DNA of 64,000 nt from Candidatus Nomurabacteria bacterium RIFCSPHIGHO2_02_40_30 (GTDB lineage: Bacteria; Patescibacteriota; Minisyncoccia; Phycocordibacterales; UBA9973). The notes beneath the pieces were generated by a model. That model saw only the letters and a program-made list of their open reading frames with translations. It was not told where the DNA came from and ran no database searches. Location: NCBI GenBank assembly GCA_001785445.1, contig MFTV01000010.1:19235-83234 (forward strand). The letters are read 5' to 3'. Of the stretch, positions 9,192-48,323 are shown piece by piece (positions within the stretch are counted from its first letter, which is position 1; each line of letters begins with the position of its first letter). Made by a program: the position numbers and the translations under genes.

Positions 9192-9236
9192 AATGCCGTT
9201 CACTTGCGATGTTTTGCAATGTGAACGGCATTTTGC
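9192..9236 (+). terminator. Intrinsic terminator after dnaK
   Basis: aatgccgttcac ... gtgaacggcatt forms a 12-bp perfect stem, followed by TTTTG. Confidence 0.6.
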
Positions 9237-9240
9237 TGGC

Positions 9241-9456
9241 TTAGTACCAGCGACTGCTTGATTGATGCGCTCGGTTGGCGGCCTCAATGCGTGCCGCTAC
9301 TGTCGCCGAATCTTCGGCTATGGGAGCGCCTTTGGCTCGTTTGCGACTCACACAAGCCGCATTTCTGAGATCCAACAGTTTCTTTCCTGTTATCAACCCA
9401 GATTTGCGCGCACTTGCATACTTCTGTCCAGCGTTTGGGACTTGCGAATGTGCCAC
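9241..9456 (-). CDS. rpsU: 30S ribosomal protein S21 (GTG start)
   Basis: Basic 71-aa product: ...SARKSGLITGKKLLDLRNAACVSRKRAKGAPIA...ANRAHQSSSRWY. This resembles S21 (SCEKAGVL...ERKRAKASAV...RRTRLY). A GTG start is preceded by AAAGGAG with a 7-nt spacer. The locally GC-rich sequence produces overlapping spurious ORFs on the + strand. Confidence 0.5.
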   Translation of the reverse strand: MAHSQVPNAGQKYASARKSGLITGKKLLDLRNAACVSRKRAKGAPIAEDSATVAARIEAANRAHQSSSRWY

Positions 9457-9552
9457 TTTTAACTCCTTTCGTTCAAAAATTTAACACACACACACAGATA
9501 TATCAAGTATTTTTGATTTGTTGCAATTAAGTTTTTGTGATATCATATAGCT

Positions 9553-9771
9553 ATGAAGAAATTAAACTTACAAAATATAGTTTGGAAAGAGGGGAAATAC
9601 TATGTTTCTCAGTGTTTAAATGTAGATGTCTCTAGTTTTGGCAAGACAAAAAAAGAGGCGCTTAAAAATTTAAGTGAAGCTCTAGATTTGTATTTTGAAG
9701 AAAAAAGTATTCCAAAATTCCAAGAGGTTAAAAGCCCGGAAATATTCCCTATGGCTTTTAGGTATGCCTAA
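9553..9771 (+). CDS. hicB: HicB-like antitoxin (type II TA, UPF0150 fold)
   Basis: 72 aa; ...EGKYYVSQCLNVDVSSFGKTKKEALKNLSEALDLYFEE matches the HicB/UPF0150 pattern (..GGYxAxxPELPGCxxxGDTxEEAxxNxxEAIELYLE). Overlaps the next ORF by 8 nt. Confidence 0.55.
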   Translation: MKKLNLQNIVWKEGKYYVSQCLNVDVSSFGKTKKEALKNLSEALDLYFEEKSIPKFQEVKSPEIFPMAFRYA

Positions 9772-9985
9772 ACTTCTGTCTTCCGCACAAATAATAAGTA
9801 TCATTGAAAGAAAAGGTTTCGTTTTTATTTCCCAAAAAGGAAGCCATATGAAATTCAGAAAATACGGGAATAAAAATCTGACAGTAATTGTTCCAGCCAA
9901 TAAAAAAGAAATTCCTATGGGAACCCTTCACTCAATCATTCGTCAGTCTTCCCTTCTTAAAGAAGATTTTTTACTTTCTAAATAA
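9764..9985 (+). CDS. hicA: HicA-like mRNA interferase toxin (YcfA family)
   Basis: Start at internal ATG 9764 (MPKLLSSAQIISIIERKGFVFISQKGSHMKFRKYGNKNLTVIVPANKKEIPMGTLHSIIRQSSL). This matches HicA (..LLxxGFxxxRQKGSHxxxxHPDGRxxTVPxHxxKDLxxGTLxSIxKQAGL). Confidence 0.6.
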   Translation: MPKLLSSAQIISIIERKGFVFISQKGSHMKFRKYGNKNLTVIVPANKKEIPMGTLHSIIRQSSLLKEDFLLSK

Positions 9986-10090: not shown

Positions 10091-10576
10091 TTAAGCCACG
10101 TTAGAAATTACGTGATTGTAGGAAATACAGAGTTTGCCTAGCTCCCAGTTTTGGGAGTCGCTGAACTCTTGTCTGGCCGCATACAGTTCTGCCGCTCGCT
10201 GTTGAACTTTGTCTTCGGAGACAGTAGCATTCTGAAGCTGATACTCTGCCAAAGCCCAGTCGAACCGTGCCCTGGCTTGTGAGATACATAGAGCAACGTG
10301 TCGAGCTGTGCTCGAAAAGGATTCAGGAGTCACTACGTGACGGTCCCGAGCCAGTCGAAGCGAGCCTTGATAGTAGGACGGCACATAGTATTCGCGTGAT
10401 ACCAACATCCACGCGAAGTGATGATCGACCCGTCGTTCCATTTCTTCTTCGTTTGTGTTCACTCGCCCAGTCTCCGCTCGCCAGCGCCAGATTCCATAGG
10501 CTACGCAAAGCACAAATTGGTCAAAGAACCCCTGTTTAACCGGTTGCTGAATTCTTCCCGATTCACTCAACGACAT
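10091..10576 (-). CDS. Hypothetical protein encoded by a compositionally atypical, GC-rich patch
   Basis: 161-aa ORF with ATG preceded by AAAGGAG (6-nt spacer). Local GC is roughly 50% against roughly 35% in flanking genes. Product is W/R-rich with no family recognised by eye. Confidence 0.5.
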   Translation of the reverse strand: MSLSESGRIQQPVKQGFFDQFVLCVAYGIWRWRAETGRVNTNEEEMERRVDHHFAWMLVSREYYVPSYYQGSLRLARDRHVVTPESFSSTARHVALCISQARARFDWALAEYQLQNATVSEDKVQQRAAELYAARQEFSDSQNWELGKLCISYNHVISNVA

Positions 10577-10697
10577 AAAGATCTCCTTTTAGCTAAACTT
10601 AAACTTCCTGATTTTTATACAACTTTTTCTTTTTTTTTGCAATAGATAACTAGGCTTTTTAGGGTGGCTATTTTTTGCTATAATTTCTAAATGAAAT

Positions 10698-10973
10698 CCC
10701 GTTAGAGATAACTTATGTTTCACTACACTTACATATTAAAAAGTCAAAAGGATGGTAAAATGTATACTGGCTATACAGAGGACCTACGGAAGCGCCTTAG
10801 TCAACATAACAAAGGTTTGTCTAACTACACGAAAGATAGAGGCCCATTTGATTTAATATATTATGAAGCGTGTTTACTGGAAGATAAAGCAAGGTCGAGA
10901 GAATTATTTTTAAAATCGGGAATGGGCAAGCGTTATCTAAAAAATAGATTAGGCGCTTCCTATCTCTAACGGG
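10698..10973. mobile_element. Minimal GIY-YIG-encoding element: 13-bp terminal inverted repeats flanked by a 7-bp direct repeat
   Basis: Left inverted repeat cccgttagagata (10698-10710) is the exact reverse complement of the right one, tatctctaacggg (10961-10973). Both are flanked outward by identical ATGAAAT (10691-10697 and 10974-10980). The downstream ATGAAAT copy is the start codon of the HAD gene. Confidence 0.6.
10715..10969 (+). CDS. GIY-YIG domain nuclease (small stand-alone, UPF0213-like)
   Basis: HYTYILKSQKDGKMYTGYTEDLRKRLSQHNKG...TKDRGPFDLIYYEA matches the GIY-YIG pattern (YxYILxS..G.xYxGxTxDLxxRLxxHN.G...T...GPW.LVYYE). The gene fills an element bounded by 13-bp inverted repeats. 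Confidence 0.75.
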   Translation: MFHYTYILKSQKDGKMYTGYTEDLRKRLSQHNKGLSNYTKDRGPFDLIYYEACLLEDKARSRELFLKSGMGKRYLKNRLGASYL

Positions 10974-11618
10974 ATGAAATATTCTTCGGTGATTTTTGAT
11001 TGGGATGGGACATTGGGGATGACTTTGCATTTGTGGTTTGAAGGATATAAAAGTGAATTGAAAAAGTTAGGGCGCGAATATTCAGACCAAGTTATCATAG
11101 ATGACTTTTTCTATGAGCATAAAAAGACAATGCTGAAATACCCTGATATGGACTTCGATGCTTTTATAGAGAATGTCCGAAAGTATATGATTAGCCATGT
11201 CTCCCATATGAAGCTATACGAAGGAGTACACGAAACATTAGAAAAGTTGCAGGAAAATAATATCAAGCTGGCGCTGGTTTCTTCAAGCCCTAGAAAATTA
11301 CTGGAAGAAGTTCTTGAACTCACAGATTTATCTAAATTTTTCTCTGCCATTTCTGGATTCGACGATATTATGAAACACAAACCCGACCCTGAACCATTTT
11401 TGTATATTATAGAAGTTGCAAAGCTAGACCCAAAAAATACTATTATCATAGGGGATTCACCTCATGATATTAGTGCTGCTAAAGCCGCTGGCATAGACTC
11501 CTGTCTTTTTTTACCGGAAGAAAACAAAATTTTTTATGACTTTGAAAAATTAAAACAAACCAACCCAACATATTGCGTGGAAACTCTGAAAGAATTCGCC
11601 AATATCGTTATAAGTTAG
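10974..11618 (+). CDS. HAD-superfamily hydrolase (phosphatase / phosphoglucomutase-like subfamily IA)
   Basis: Motif I VIFDWDGTL; motif III/IV ...KHKPDPEPF...IIIGDSPHDISAAKAAGI. Confidence 0.8.
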   Translation: MKYSSVIFDWDGTLGMTLHLWFEGYKSELKKLGREYSDQVIIDDFFYEHKKTMLKYPDMDFDAFIENVRKYMISHVSHMKLYEGVHETLEKLQENNIKLALVSSSPRKLLEEVLELTDLSKFFSAISGFDDIMKHKPDPEPFLYIIEVAKLDPKNTIIIGDSPHDISAAKAAGIDSCLFLPEENKIFYDFEKLKQTNPTYCVETLKEFANIVIS

Positions 11619-46900: not shown

Positions 46901-47867
46901 TATGGAAAGCGTGCATAAGACAGTTCTTTTACAAGAGACAATAGATGGTTTGAATTTGAAAAATAATTCTGTAGTCGTGGATGCCACATTCGGTGGAGGC
47001 GGGCATAGCTTAGAAATTTTATTAAGAAACCCAAATACAAAAGTTATCGCCATTGATCAAGATAGTACCGTTTGGGAAAGGGTGAAAGAAAAATTTAAAG
47101 GATTAGAGAACAGAATTTCTTTTACCAATAAAAATTTCCGAGACATAGATAAACTGGAGAATATTGATCCCGTTAGAAGCCGCCCTCTCGAACACGAGAG
47201 TGCTACGATCACCTTGGGGCGACCTGCTTCTAACGGGATTGATGGAATTATTTTTGATTTAGGTTTAAGTTCCGACCAGCTAGAGAATTCCGGACGAGGA
47301 TTTTCTTTCATGAAAGATGAGCCCTTGCTCATGCAAATGAAAAGTTCAGCGAAAGAAAATCCTTCTCCAGAAGATGTTACAGCACTTGATGTGGTAAATA
47401 CATGGAGCGAGAAAAGTTTAGCCGATATTATTTATGGCTATGGAGAGGAAAAATTTAGCCGGAGAATAGCCAAGGGCATAGTGGAGACACGACAAAAGAA
47501 AAAGATTGAAACCACGACCGAACTAGTCGAAATCATCAGTCAGGCAGTTCCGGCAGCATATAGGAGAGCCAGATTACACTTTGCCACCAGAACCTTTCAG
47601 GCCATAAGAATAGCAGTAAATGACGAGCTGGGTAGCTTGGAACAAGGATTGAGTAAAGGATTTGACGCATTAAAAATAGGTGGACGAATAGCAACAATTT
47701 CTTTCCACAGCTTGGAAGACCGAATAGTAAAAAGATTTTATAAAAAAAAGGTTACGGAGGGAAAAGGAAAATTAGTAAATAAAAAGATAATTTTAGCAGA
47801 TAATAGTGAAATTAAAAATAATCCAAGAGCCAGAAGCGCAAAATTACGAATAATAGAAAAAATATAA
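46893..47867 (+). CDS. rsmH: 16S rRNA (cytosine1402-N4)-methyltransferase RsmH (MraW)
   Basis: HKTVLLQETIDGL...VVDATFGGGGHS (SAM-binding) ...FDLGLSSDQLE...ISFHSLEDRIVK is the RsmH signature. Confidence 0.9.
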   Translation: MNDMESVHKTVLLQETIDGLNLKNNSVVVDATFGGGGHSLEILLRNPNTKVIAIDQDSTVWERVKEKFKGLENRISFTNKNFRDIDKLENIDPVRSRPLEHESATITLGRPASNGIDGIIFDLGLSSDQLENSGRGFSFMKDEPLLMQMKSSAKENPSPEDVTALDVVNTWSEKSLADIIYGYGEEKFSRRIAKGIVETRQKKKIETTTELVEIISQAVPAAYRRARLHFATRTFQAIRIAVNDELGSLEQGLSKGFDALKIGGRIATISFHSLEDRIVKRFYKKKVTEGKGKLVNKKIILADNSEIKNNPRARSAKLRIIEKI

Positions 47868-47942
47868 AAAATATGAGTCCCGTTAGAAGTTCACTGGCGG
47901 GAGATAAAAAGAAAAATTATAAATTTTAAAACTTCTAACGGG

Positions 47943-48323
47943 ATGAGTGCGATAGCTTCAAAAATAAATATGCAAATCAGGAGTATCAATGTTATAAACA
48001 ACAATGTTGAAAAACTCTTTTTGCGTATCTTACTTTGGTCTTTCGCGACATTTCTTTTGTGGTATATTTTCCTTTTAGGCAGTATGGTTTTCAATATTGT
48101 AGAACGCCGAACCCTTGAAAAAGAAGCGTTGGTTTTATCTAATCAAGTTCATGAATTGGAGCTTAACTACCTATCAATGTCTAACAAGATTGATCTTACT
48201 TTTGCATATTCTGTGGGTTTTAAGGAGACGAATATCAAGTTTGCAACTCGTAAATTTTTAGGATTTAACCCTAGCAACGGGTCATCTGGTAATATTGATA
48301 GTATTTCTAAAAATGAAATTTAG
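47943..48323 (+). CDS. Putative cell-division protein FtsL-like (single TM plus coiled coil)
   Basis: 126 aa with one TM helix and a short heptad region. Sits between rsmH and ftsI, where ftsL normally lies. No sequence signature. Confidence 0.4.
   Translation: MSAIASKINMQIRSINVINNNVEKLFLRILLWSFATFLLWYIFLLGSMVFNIVERRTLEKEALVLSNQVHELELNYLSMSNKIDLTFAYSVGFKETNIKFATRKFLGFNPSNGSSGNIDSISKNEI

Follow-up and report, generated by a model that had tools for sequence, protein, structure and literature searches.

The window analysed here comprises 64,000 nt of contig MFTV01000010.1 from a Candidatus Nomurabacteria genome. It contains a gene for an 84-aa GIY-YIG nuclease enclosed by inverted repeats and placed directly on the start codon of a HAD hydrolase gene. 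This region is very probably one copy of a family of mobile elements of the Patescibacteria, carrying inverted repeats at its ends and generating short target duplications. Taken as a whole, it is probably a minimal transposon-like element with derivatives resembling MITEs (miniature transposable elements with inverted repeats), mobilized by a nuclease similar to the Ssn enzymes compared below. The GIY-YIG protein is favoured as the mobilizing nuclease, by an association between nuclease and mobility seen in the sequences. We put forward more tentatively that the 84-aa protein is itself the mobilizer, in which case the ~278-bp cassette would be the smallest known autonomous DNA transposon and the first in prokaryotes to be driven by a GIY-YIG enzyme. 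The family is apparently undescribed: a literature search found no description of a GIY-YIG nuclease gene as the cargo of an inverted-repeat element in prokaryotes, and of the publications listed as containing CCCGTTAGA none was about such an element.

The nuclease-bearing copy and its immediate surroundings are made up of the following features.

10676–10684, + strand: extended −10-like box TGCTATAAT, seen by eye 6 nt 5′ of the left ATG
10692–10696, + strand: left target-site duplication TGAAA, flush with the element end as in the family
10697–10710, + strand: left terminal inverted repeat TCCCGTTAGAGATA, the 5′ arm of helix P1
10715–10969, + strand: open reading frame (ORF) of the GIY-YIG nuclease, 84 aa, a single domain (PF01541), its stop codon inside the right repeat and 4 nt before the host ATG
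10788–10797, + strand: 5′ arm of helix P2, GGAAGCGCCT, inside the coding sequence, from covariation and DNA folding
10951–10960, + strand: 3′ arm of helix P2, AGGCGCTTCC, abutting the right terminal repeat, from covariation and DNA folding
10961–10974, + strand: right terminal inverted repeat TATCTCTAACGGGA, the 3′ arm of P1, its last base being the A of the host ATG
10975–10979, + strand: right target-site duplication TGAAA, flush with the element end
10974–11618, + strand: HAD hydrolase host gene, full length (HAD_2, E = 5e-38), with the element inserted at its start codon

The sequence cccgttagagata (10698–10710) is the exact reverse complement of tatctctaacggg (10961–10973), and these are the only two exact positions of the 13-mer in the 64 kb. 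An earlier note, made by reading the sequence of the window, had described these 13-mers as enclosing the 84-aa ORF and nothing else. This is borne out; the ORF is the sole one between the arms and its TAA (10967–10969) falls within the right arm, and the perfect inverted repeat extends to 15 nt (10696–10710 with 10961–10975). The note was also right that the heptamer ATGAAAT is present on both sides (10691–10697 and 10974–10980), with the right copy opening an intact HAD gene. It took this heptamer to be a 7-bp target duplication, which does not hold when the ends are defined by the bases found family-wide. The element then spans 10697–10974 (278 bp) and the heptamer decomposes into A + TGAAA + T, where the left T is the first base of the element and the right A its last. 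The duplication is TGAAA, 5 nt in length at this copy and 4 nt in the family. The host start codon has been rebuilt as the note proposed, with the qualification that its A is the terminal base of the element itself (a G, giving GTG, in copies with C..G ends). The left ATG opens the dead frame described previously, ATG AAA TCC CGT TAG. The TATAAT box placed in front of it was seen by eye, and a simple two-hexamer promoter scan did not confirm TGCTATAAT; transcription of the host gene, and at present also of the element, probably depends on this box. Every contig in the sampled assemblies that carries either the exact GIY-YIG protein or the exact HAD protein shows this same arrangement with the insert. 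The window itself belongs to a Nomurabacteria-like genome of the Rifle aquifer (e.g. GCA_000995705.1 and GCA_001787075.1).

The search for further copies of the repeat that the note had recommended gave two more in the window and many in relatives. The 11-mer ATCCCGTTAGA occurs six times in the window, as three inverted pairs. With 0.84 occurrences expected, and none of 100 shuffles reaching six, chance is excluded. Each of the three pairs has its own flanking direct repeat (TGAAA, TTGA and TGAG). The two additional pairs enclose no gene and are termed miniatures.

47164–47242 (69-nt core 47169–47237), + strand: miniature element B, TTGA [T CCCG...CGGG A] TTGA, in rsmH
47874–47947 (64-nt core 47879–47942), + strand: miniature element C, TGAG [T CCCG...CGGG A] TGAG

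The insert of element B in rsmH is 75 nt, corresponding to 25 codons; it is in-frame and the ORF continues across it. Element C lies in the gap separating rsmH from the ORF downstream, at the start codon of that ORF (47943), where the right copy supplies the ATG. Long-stem folds are predicted for elements B and C, with z = −7.3 and −4.2 respectively.

Database searches gave 585 homologues of the nuclease, the best 120 of which (80–99% identical) come from Nomurabacteria, Woesebacteria, Paceibacterota and others. In data with one genome per species, 442 stretches encode a relative, and the best 80 of these were fetched. They derive from many Patescibacteria genomes and hold GIY-YIG homologues that are 63–92% identical, with two or three nuclease copies at unrelated loci in several genomes. 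(A/G)TCCCGTTAGAGAT...ATCTCTAACGGGAT encloses the ORF in virtually all of these best 80 loci, with an ATG directly at the right end. A census of the 80 loci plus the window (the locus set, 1.22 Mb) gave 108 inverted motif pairs. They fall into size classes of 46–48, 64–69, 77, 107–120 and 265–285 nt, the nuclease gene being found in the last class alone, and the forms without it span ~27 to 120 bp. One relative locus (L015; L-numbers denote the sampled relative loci) has eight elements in 20 kb, seven miniatures and one nuclease copy. A second sample, independent of the locus set and obtained by a pattern scan of metagenome contigs together with ten contigs of a viral collection, provided at least 162 further pairs, of which 160 could be scored for flanking repeats. 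In total there are at least about 270 elements in ~2 Mb of related Patescibacteria DNA.

The terminal inverted repeats of the family are 14 nt long, (T/C)CCCGTTAGAR...YTCTAACGGG(A/G). Among the matches listed, the bases directly outside CCCG...CGGG are T..A in 126 and C..G in 131, with other combinations almost never found; since they covary, these bases are part of the inverted repeat. A flush perfect direct repeat of at least 4 nt flanks 57 of the 108 locus-set elements, with a mode of 4 nt (n = 48), compared with a mean of 12.9 and a maximum of 24 over 2000 trials in which the flanks were randomly re-paired. In the second sample 99 of the 160 pairs, among the matches listed, have such repeats (shuffled mean 14.4, maximum 27), and 96 of these are exactly 4 nt. 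Over the family the duplication length has its mode at 4 nt and a range of 3–6 nt. The 146 exact 4-mer duplications among the matches listed have the symmetric form T (91%) N N A (85%), and reverse-complement duplications are both common (TGAA/TTCA, TTTA/TAAA). Tandem elements joined by one shared TGAA (L072:5259–5661, L054:9533–10260, L082:9959–10000, L070 and L062) are expected if a new copy inserts into the duplication of an older one. Some miniatures (L014:4635, L085:12863 and L060) plainly arose from the nuclease element by deletion; what they retain of it is the 5′ leader or the 3′ end, P2 being replaced by a local hairpin. The earlier note had proposed that a mobile insertion duplicated the start codon. 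Ends with flush repeats at these many sites, and the empty sites described below, uphold that part, while the cut-and-paste mode that it named is not shown. Repeats are indeed found apart from the gene, which the note had thought might mark a general regulatory hairpin, yet the gene-less copies are mobile miniatures with duplications, not regulatory hairpins.

Further forms were observed in the same loci. Miniatures of ~115 nt (L014:5104–5221, L015:10687–10804 and L061:10292–10406) often have an ORF of 18–25 codons that ends at the TAA of the right repeat, as ..IAICF* or ..TATCF*, in the same position as the end of the nuclease ORF. These could encode a micro-protein or be a mere by-product of the conserved stem. 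At L055:3017–3268 there is a 74%-identical nuclease copy that no longer has either terminal repeat and adjoins a solitary right end; it may be decaying or domesticated. Phages as vectors of the element were considered and set aside. Ten IMG/VR contigs classed as viral (L211–L220) carry miniatures with the same ends, and no relative of the GIY-YIG nuclease was found in IMG/VR.

Comparison of closely related strains reveals precise gain or loss. Three RsmH proteins (P0123–P0125, where P-numbers denote the RsmH proteins compared) that are 94–100% identical to RsmH of the window are without exactly the 25 residues IDPVRSRPLEHESATITLGRPASNG. The contig encoding P0123 (L089) reads GAGAAT-ATTGAT-GGA, and the window GAGAAT-ATTGAT-[CCCG...69 nt...CGGG]-ATTGAT-GGA. 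The difference is exactly 75 bp, the rsmH copy plus one TTGA, with otherwise 2 substitutions in ~860 bp, and element C is shared by the two. A near-identical strain without the rsmH copy points to recent mobility of element B. At another site the empty sequence ...CCCT-A-TGGA-AACA (L045) compares with ...A-TGGA-[element]-TGGA-AACA (L042), and a further precise comparison involves TGCAA (L023, L045 and L042 against L028 and others). Orthologues of a gene starting MQFKVPQF have a nuclease element in six genomes and none in three or four. Independent insertion at one site is seen as well. A more distant RsmH (L090, 71% identical) has at the same codon an element identical to B at 66 of 69 positions, while the DNA of the gene is only ~65% identical, and the local duplication is TAGA as opposed to TTGA in the window. 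A near-identical element within a diverged gene, having its own duplication, indicates an independent insertion at a favoured or permissive site.

Two other in-frame inserts were noted in housekeeping proteins. A second, unrelated family of palindromic inserts occupies the same surface loop of RsmH in other Patescibacteria, as in homologue P0160 (L222:574–650; DNA GATAATTTAAAAAATTTCAGCG...CGCTTTAAATTTTTCAAATTATC), giving the peptide KNF..GQGTH..KNSL at about columns 135–160 of the protein alignment. Arginyl-tRNA synthetase (ArgS, L085:12957–14699) contains the in-frame insert ..DPVRNGDSKEESVSNG.. from a short copy of the element family described here. In-frame hairpin inserts may be a general feature of proteins of the candidate phyla radiation (CPR).

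The right junction is an ATG or GTG in 64 of 74 nuclease copies. In 76 of the 108 locus-set elements this codon is followed by at least 50 open codons, and tblastn to orthologues starts there at residues 1–4. The nuclease gene is invariably oriented in the sense of the host gene, with its stop codon 4 nt before the host ATG or overlapping it as ATGA. The host start is ATG with T..A ends and GTG with C..G ends, being composed of the terminal base of the element and the TG of the duplication. Only 20% of miniatures are within open frames, compared with 57% for random segments. Of those that are, 30 of 31 have a length divisible by three, and they are translated as ..PVR...SNG.. or ..PLE...LTG... 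We infer that insertion is loosely sequence-specific (TNNA), and that the harmless positions are those remaining after purifying selection. As another source of the start-codon positions, we considered whether insertion is targeted to leaderless genes through their open promoter complexes. A −10-like box is present 4–9 nt upstream at 18 of 49 nuclease sites (37%), which is not clearly above the 29% at ordinary gene starts, and the idea was dropped as a specific mechanism of targeting. A TANNNT box 4–9 nt upstream of ~29% of first ATGs (ORFs of at least 150 aa, all loci) suggests that these genomes have many leaderless transcripts; several occupied and empty insertion sites show TATAAT-N6-7-ATG.

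The 84-aa ORF matches the Pfam GIY-YIG family (PF01541) with E = 1.4e-16, and has no other domain. The ORF is intact in 70 of 72 aligned elements, with lengths of 81–88 aa, and its codon-position entropies of 0.58/0.41/1.17 over the 72 elements indicate purifying selection on the nuclease. Y4, Y6, Y17, G19, R27, H31, E51 and N77 are invariant in 27 diverse members, and the catalytic Tyr, Arg, His, Glu and Asn positions are thereby all conserved. The structure was modelled by AlphaFold on database homologues of the nuclease (pLDDT 93). The order of secondary structure, E-E-H-E-H-H, fits the beta-beta-alpha-beta-alpha GIY-YIG core, and the best folds in the PDB are those of UPF0213 (1zg2) and SLX1, with TM 0.64–0.69, better than UvrC or I-TevI. 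A profile search of the PDB gave UPF0213 1zg2 at 1e-11 and SLX1 at 9e-4. The nuclease is about equally distant from Bacillus subtilis YazA (UPF0213) and from a Sinorhizobium homologue flanked by hairpins. As regards the homing-endonuclease and UPF0213 families that the earlier note had suggested for comparison, the fold of the protein is closer to UPF0213/SLX1 than to I-TevI. SLX1 is a structure-specific nuclease of branched DNA that also cuts stem-loops, which fits recognition of a folded element.

The same data bear on whether this could be a free-standing GIY-YIG homing endonuclease gene that cuts empty alleles and is copied in by recombinational repair, an explanation that we regard as very improbable. 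Homing endonucleases of the GIY-YIG type are a familiar class, several species have insertions at the same orthologous gene starts, and NCBIfam, while assigning the nuclease to no family, gives a weak match to TIGR01453. Yet the protein has only 84 aa with no DNA-binding domain and the fold is nearer to SLX1/UPF0213. Moreover dozens of unrelated sites are occupied, and homing does not produce flush duplications, terminal inverted repeats or gene-less miniatures.

The element has a conserved secondary structure based upon two helices, tested for covariation in an alignment of 72 nuclease elements. P1 is formed by pairing of the two element ends, and P2 by pairing of 10788–10797 with 10951–10960, so abutting the 3′ arm of P1. 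Over the 72 elements 93% of helix cells are paired, dropping to 28–49% in slid controls. Eleven pairs in P1 and P2 are changed on both sides, with 90 doubly-changed cells compared with 25±4 in shuffles. In P2 8 of 14 pairs are compensatory (e.g. G-C 53/A-T 16 and C-G 48/T-A 22), with both arms being coding sequence. Within the terminal repeat CCCGTTAG is invariant in all 72, with compensatory changes at −1/+1, 10 and 12. Third codon positions have an entropy of 1.17, reduced to 0.58 where they lie in the stems, and folding of the whole element as DNA recovers both P1 and P2 (z = −4.6). The covariation shows that a single-stranded folded form matters, and DNA and RNA are both compatible with it.

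The paired ends might therefore be thought to act at the level of RNA, forming a stem in the mRNA that serves as a processing site, a translational coupler or an intron-like unit. Besides the covariation, the strong predicted RNA folds (z = −7 for element B) are in keeping with this, and the 5′ location and the spacing of stop and start codons suggest coupling. We consider it scarcely probable. Target duplications and empty sites are DNA-level events, the interior sequences occur in both orientations relative to genes, and copies within genes obey the multiple-of-three rule, so appear to be translated and not removed. At gathering thresholds Rfam finds tRNA alone in the window, and nothing is found at E ≤ 1 across 47100–48000, which includes both miniatures.

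No other enzyme was found to accompany these ends. In 2.0 Mb (complete genomes were not scanned) there was no inverted pair longer than 285 nt enclosing a gene of its own, and no DDE, HUH, serine or tyrosine transposase between matching ends. Distant inverted pairs (0.3–6 kb) were considered as the site of a hidden transposase, and this was rejected; they contain RecG-like, VirB4-like, PilM-like, capsid-like and MazG-like genes and small ordinary genes. The GIY-YIG nuclease is the only gene seen between these ends in the 2.0 Mb. A sister nuclease subfamily with 47–52% identity (L027:6961, L031:13128 and L061:18261) has different ends, CCnGTAGTAGA..., and gene-less miniatures with the sister ends are also present. 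That the ends change together with the nuclease argues that the protein reads the ends.

From these observations we propose the following mechanism for the family. The element is bounded by 14-nt terminal repeats with a 4-nt TNNA duplication (range 3–6 nt), existing in a 276–280-bp form with a gene for a nuclease of the SLX1/UPF0213/Ssn-like branch of GIY-YIG enzymes, and in forms of ~27 to 120 bp without the nuclease that behave like MITE-type dependants. In a single strand, the element is predicted to fold with the long P1 stacked on P2 near the right end. The nuclease may recognize the folded ends as a hairpin or cruciform, probably as single-stranded DNA (ssDNA) in the manner of Ssn, and nick at the base. 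The target would be opened by a 4-nt stagger at TNNA, and host repair and ligation would complete the insertion. Nuclease copies persist nearly exclusively at start codons, oriented with the host gene, where the last base and the TG of the duplication rebuild ATG or GTG. With the nuclease stop 4 nt upstream of the host start, or overlapping it, the host gene should still be translatable by reinitiation, and the nuclease may borrow the host promoter. Miniatures inside genes would persist only if their length is a multiple of three, and would then be translated as loop inserts.

A number of points weigh against this mechanism. DDE transposases are classically recognized by short duplications of fixed length at a symmetric target, and to our knowledge GIY-YIG enzymes are hydrolytic nucleases having no strand-transfer chemistry. 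About a quarter to a third of the elements lack a flush duplication. The copy at the HAD gene is fixed in all sampled assemblies; the empty site that the earlier note had recommended seeking was not found in them, and the exact 23-mer of the predicted empty site was unmatched in the metagenome collection. Nuclease-bearing copies within one genome are 78–91% identical and none are identical, so that recent bursts of the full-length element are not documented. Mismatches in the helices (G·T 17 against A·C 10) indicate no particular folding strand. Lastly, the SRM pattern published for Ssn, HGTCWYN(0-2)YYVSBRHN(0-5)WNVSBRGN(0-2)RNCYNB, has no match in the 64-kb window.

The first of these points is the basis of the main rival explanation, that a DDE-type transposase encoded elsewhere acts in trans on what are ordinary MITEs, with the GIY-YIG gene a passenger or a selfish colonizer of one lineage. 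Sequence-conserved terminal repeats, like the 4-nt duplication and symmetric TNNA, are typical of DDE insertion sequences, and GIY-YIG enzymes are without known transposase chemistry. In addition the miniatures outnumber nuclease copies by ~160 to 1 in the unbiased sample, among the matches listed. We nevertheless think this unlikely given that 2.0 Mb of DNA rich in elements has no transposase gene between such ends. The nuclease ORF is interlocked with the ends, with its stop codon in the repeat and P2 in the coding sequence, and this arrangement has been kept in more than 70 loci under purifying selection. A passenger is also at odds with the sister nuclease subfamily having correspondingly different ends, and with those miniatures that are visibly deletion derivatives of the nuclease element.

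The fixed HAD copy and the lack of identical copies within a genome would suit instead a domesticated Ssn-like system of use to the host, which might, as in Neisseria, limit or shape how incoming ssDNA recombines, with mobility being historical. Patescibacteria depend on DNA uptake, and the nuclease is strongly conserved and intact; the Ssn/NTS system itself is the precedent (PMC11893778). We judge this improbable as a full account, in view of the recent precise presence/absence polymorphism and the independent insertions. The in-frame copies in housekeeping genes and the depletion in open frames resemble tolerated parasites, and the published SRM motif is absent. Domestication and mobilization by the nuclease are not exclusive, and the two readings are compatible.

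Other observations concern the neighbourhood of the nuclease-bearing copy. One metagenome contig (ERZ27254842 k141_1542435, L006:2450–3010) compared with window 10400–11000 is identical throughout the HAD gene and over the last (3′) third of the nuclease gene, the 5′ part of the latter being ~12% diverged and the upstream flank unrelated; either two copies of the element have recombined or the assembly is chimeric at the repeat. Upstream of the element, an ORF of 161 aa on the − strand (10091–10576) has ~50% G+C compared with 39% for the window and no Pfam match, and it varies from 140 to 161 aa between near-identical strains. A gene pair comprising a HicB-like protein (DUF7387, a weak match) and a HicA toxin is found at 9553–9985, just upstream of the element neighbourhood, and a G+C-rich stretch lies 3′ of dnaK (9200–9500).

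The catalogued transposases comprise the DDE, HUH, serine, tyrosine and Cas1 classes. Should mobility be driven by the nuclease, there would be a new class, acting on its own folded ends and leaving 4-nt TNNA duplications. This would constitute a new enzymatic route to DNA transposition, and set a new lower size limit for an autonomous element. It would also provide a concrete mechanism for the spread of palindromic repeats such as the Rickettsia palindromic elements (RPEs) and NTS/dRS3, even in-frame into essential genes, and a testable selfish-element origin for Ssn-type nucleases. The family explains unexpected extra loops in housekeeping proteins of Patescibacteria, and offers a tractable model for how elements of the Rickettsia type enter genes. 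In CPR genomes the repeats give rise to chimeric assemblies and to errors of annotation, and enzyme–hairpin pairs could enlarge the tool kit for ssDNA.

Elements of this kind share properties with several known systems. Like MITEs and their parent insertion sequences (the IS5 type with 4-bp duplications, and Correia elements) they have terminal repeats, a short fixed duplication and many gene-less copies, including deletion derivatives of the coding element. Unlike those families, the sole coding member has a GIY-YIG nuclease in place of a DDE, HUH, serine or tyrosine transposase, and the full element is only ~278 bp with a conserved inner helix P2. RPEs are similar by description, as in-frame palindromes translated as extra loops and patchy among orthologues. 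They belong to another lineage and differ in sequence, and the clear 4-nt duplications and candidate enzyme of the present family have no established equivalent in RPEs. REP and REPIN sequences with their RAYT (IS200/IS605-like Y1) also comprise dispersed hairpins and one cognate small enzyme gene flanked by them, and action on single-stranded hairpins has been proposed there as it is proposed here. RAYT is an HUH tyrosine enzyme, however, and REPs lack target duplications and lie outside genes. The closest sequence and fold are those of SLX1/UPF0213 (URI-type GIY-YIG), although SLX1 is a repair enzyme with an SLX4 partner and a RING domain, and has no association with repeats or mobility. I-TevI and Seg homing endonucleases differ in the features already described, namely a DNA-binding domain linked to the nuclease domain, a single cognate homing site and the lack of duplications.

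The published system that comes nearest is Ssn (cd10448), and the earlier opinion that such cassettes are not a standard annotated class is only partly true in the light of it. Ssn proteins are single-domain GIY-YIG enzymes of ~94 aa that cut ssDNA only, beside NTS/SRM hairpins; these hairpins are found on both sides of the enzyme's own gene and scattered in the genome, and the authors likened NTS-ssnA-NTS to an insertion sequence (PMC11893778, Chenal et al. 2025). In common with Ssn, the window family has a single GIY-YIG domain of less than 150 aa (here 81–88 aa, with ~85–95 aa covering both systems), a hairpin-forming repeat framing the nuclease gene, and a dispersed cognate hairpin motif (three elements in the 64-kb window, eight per 20 kb in L015). 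The resemblance is supported by a distant homologue in Sinorhizobium (38% identity), which is flanked by dRS3/NTS-like hairpins. The window gene differs in being enclosed by the two arms of a single long-range hairpin, whereas the Ssn gene lies between two complete hairpins, and the repeat sequence is unrelated to NTS/SRM. The Ssn study reported no target duplications, no empty sites and no Patescibacteria (PMC11893778). The window family thus extends beyond that report in its target duplications and empty sites, evidence absent from the work on Ssn, and in its in-frame genic copies and its targeting of start codons.

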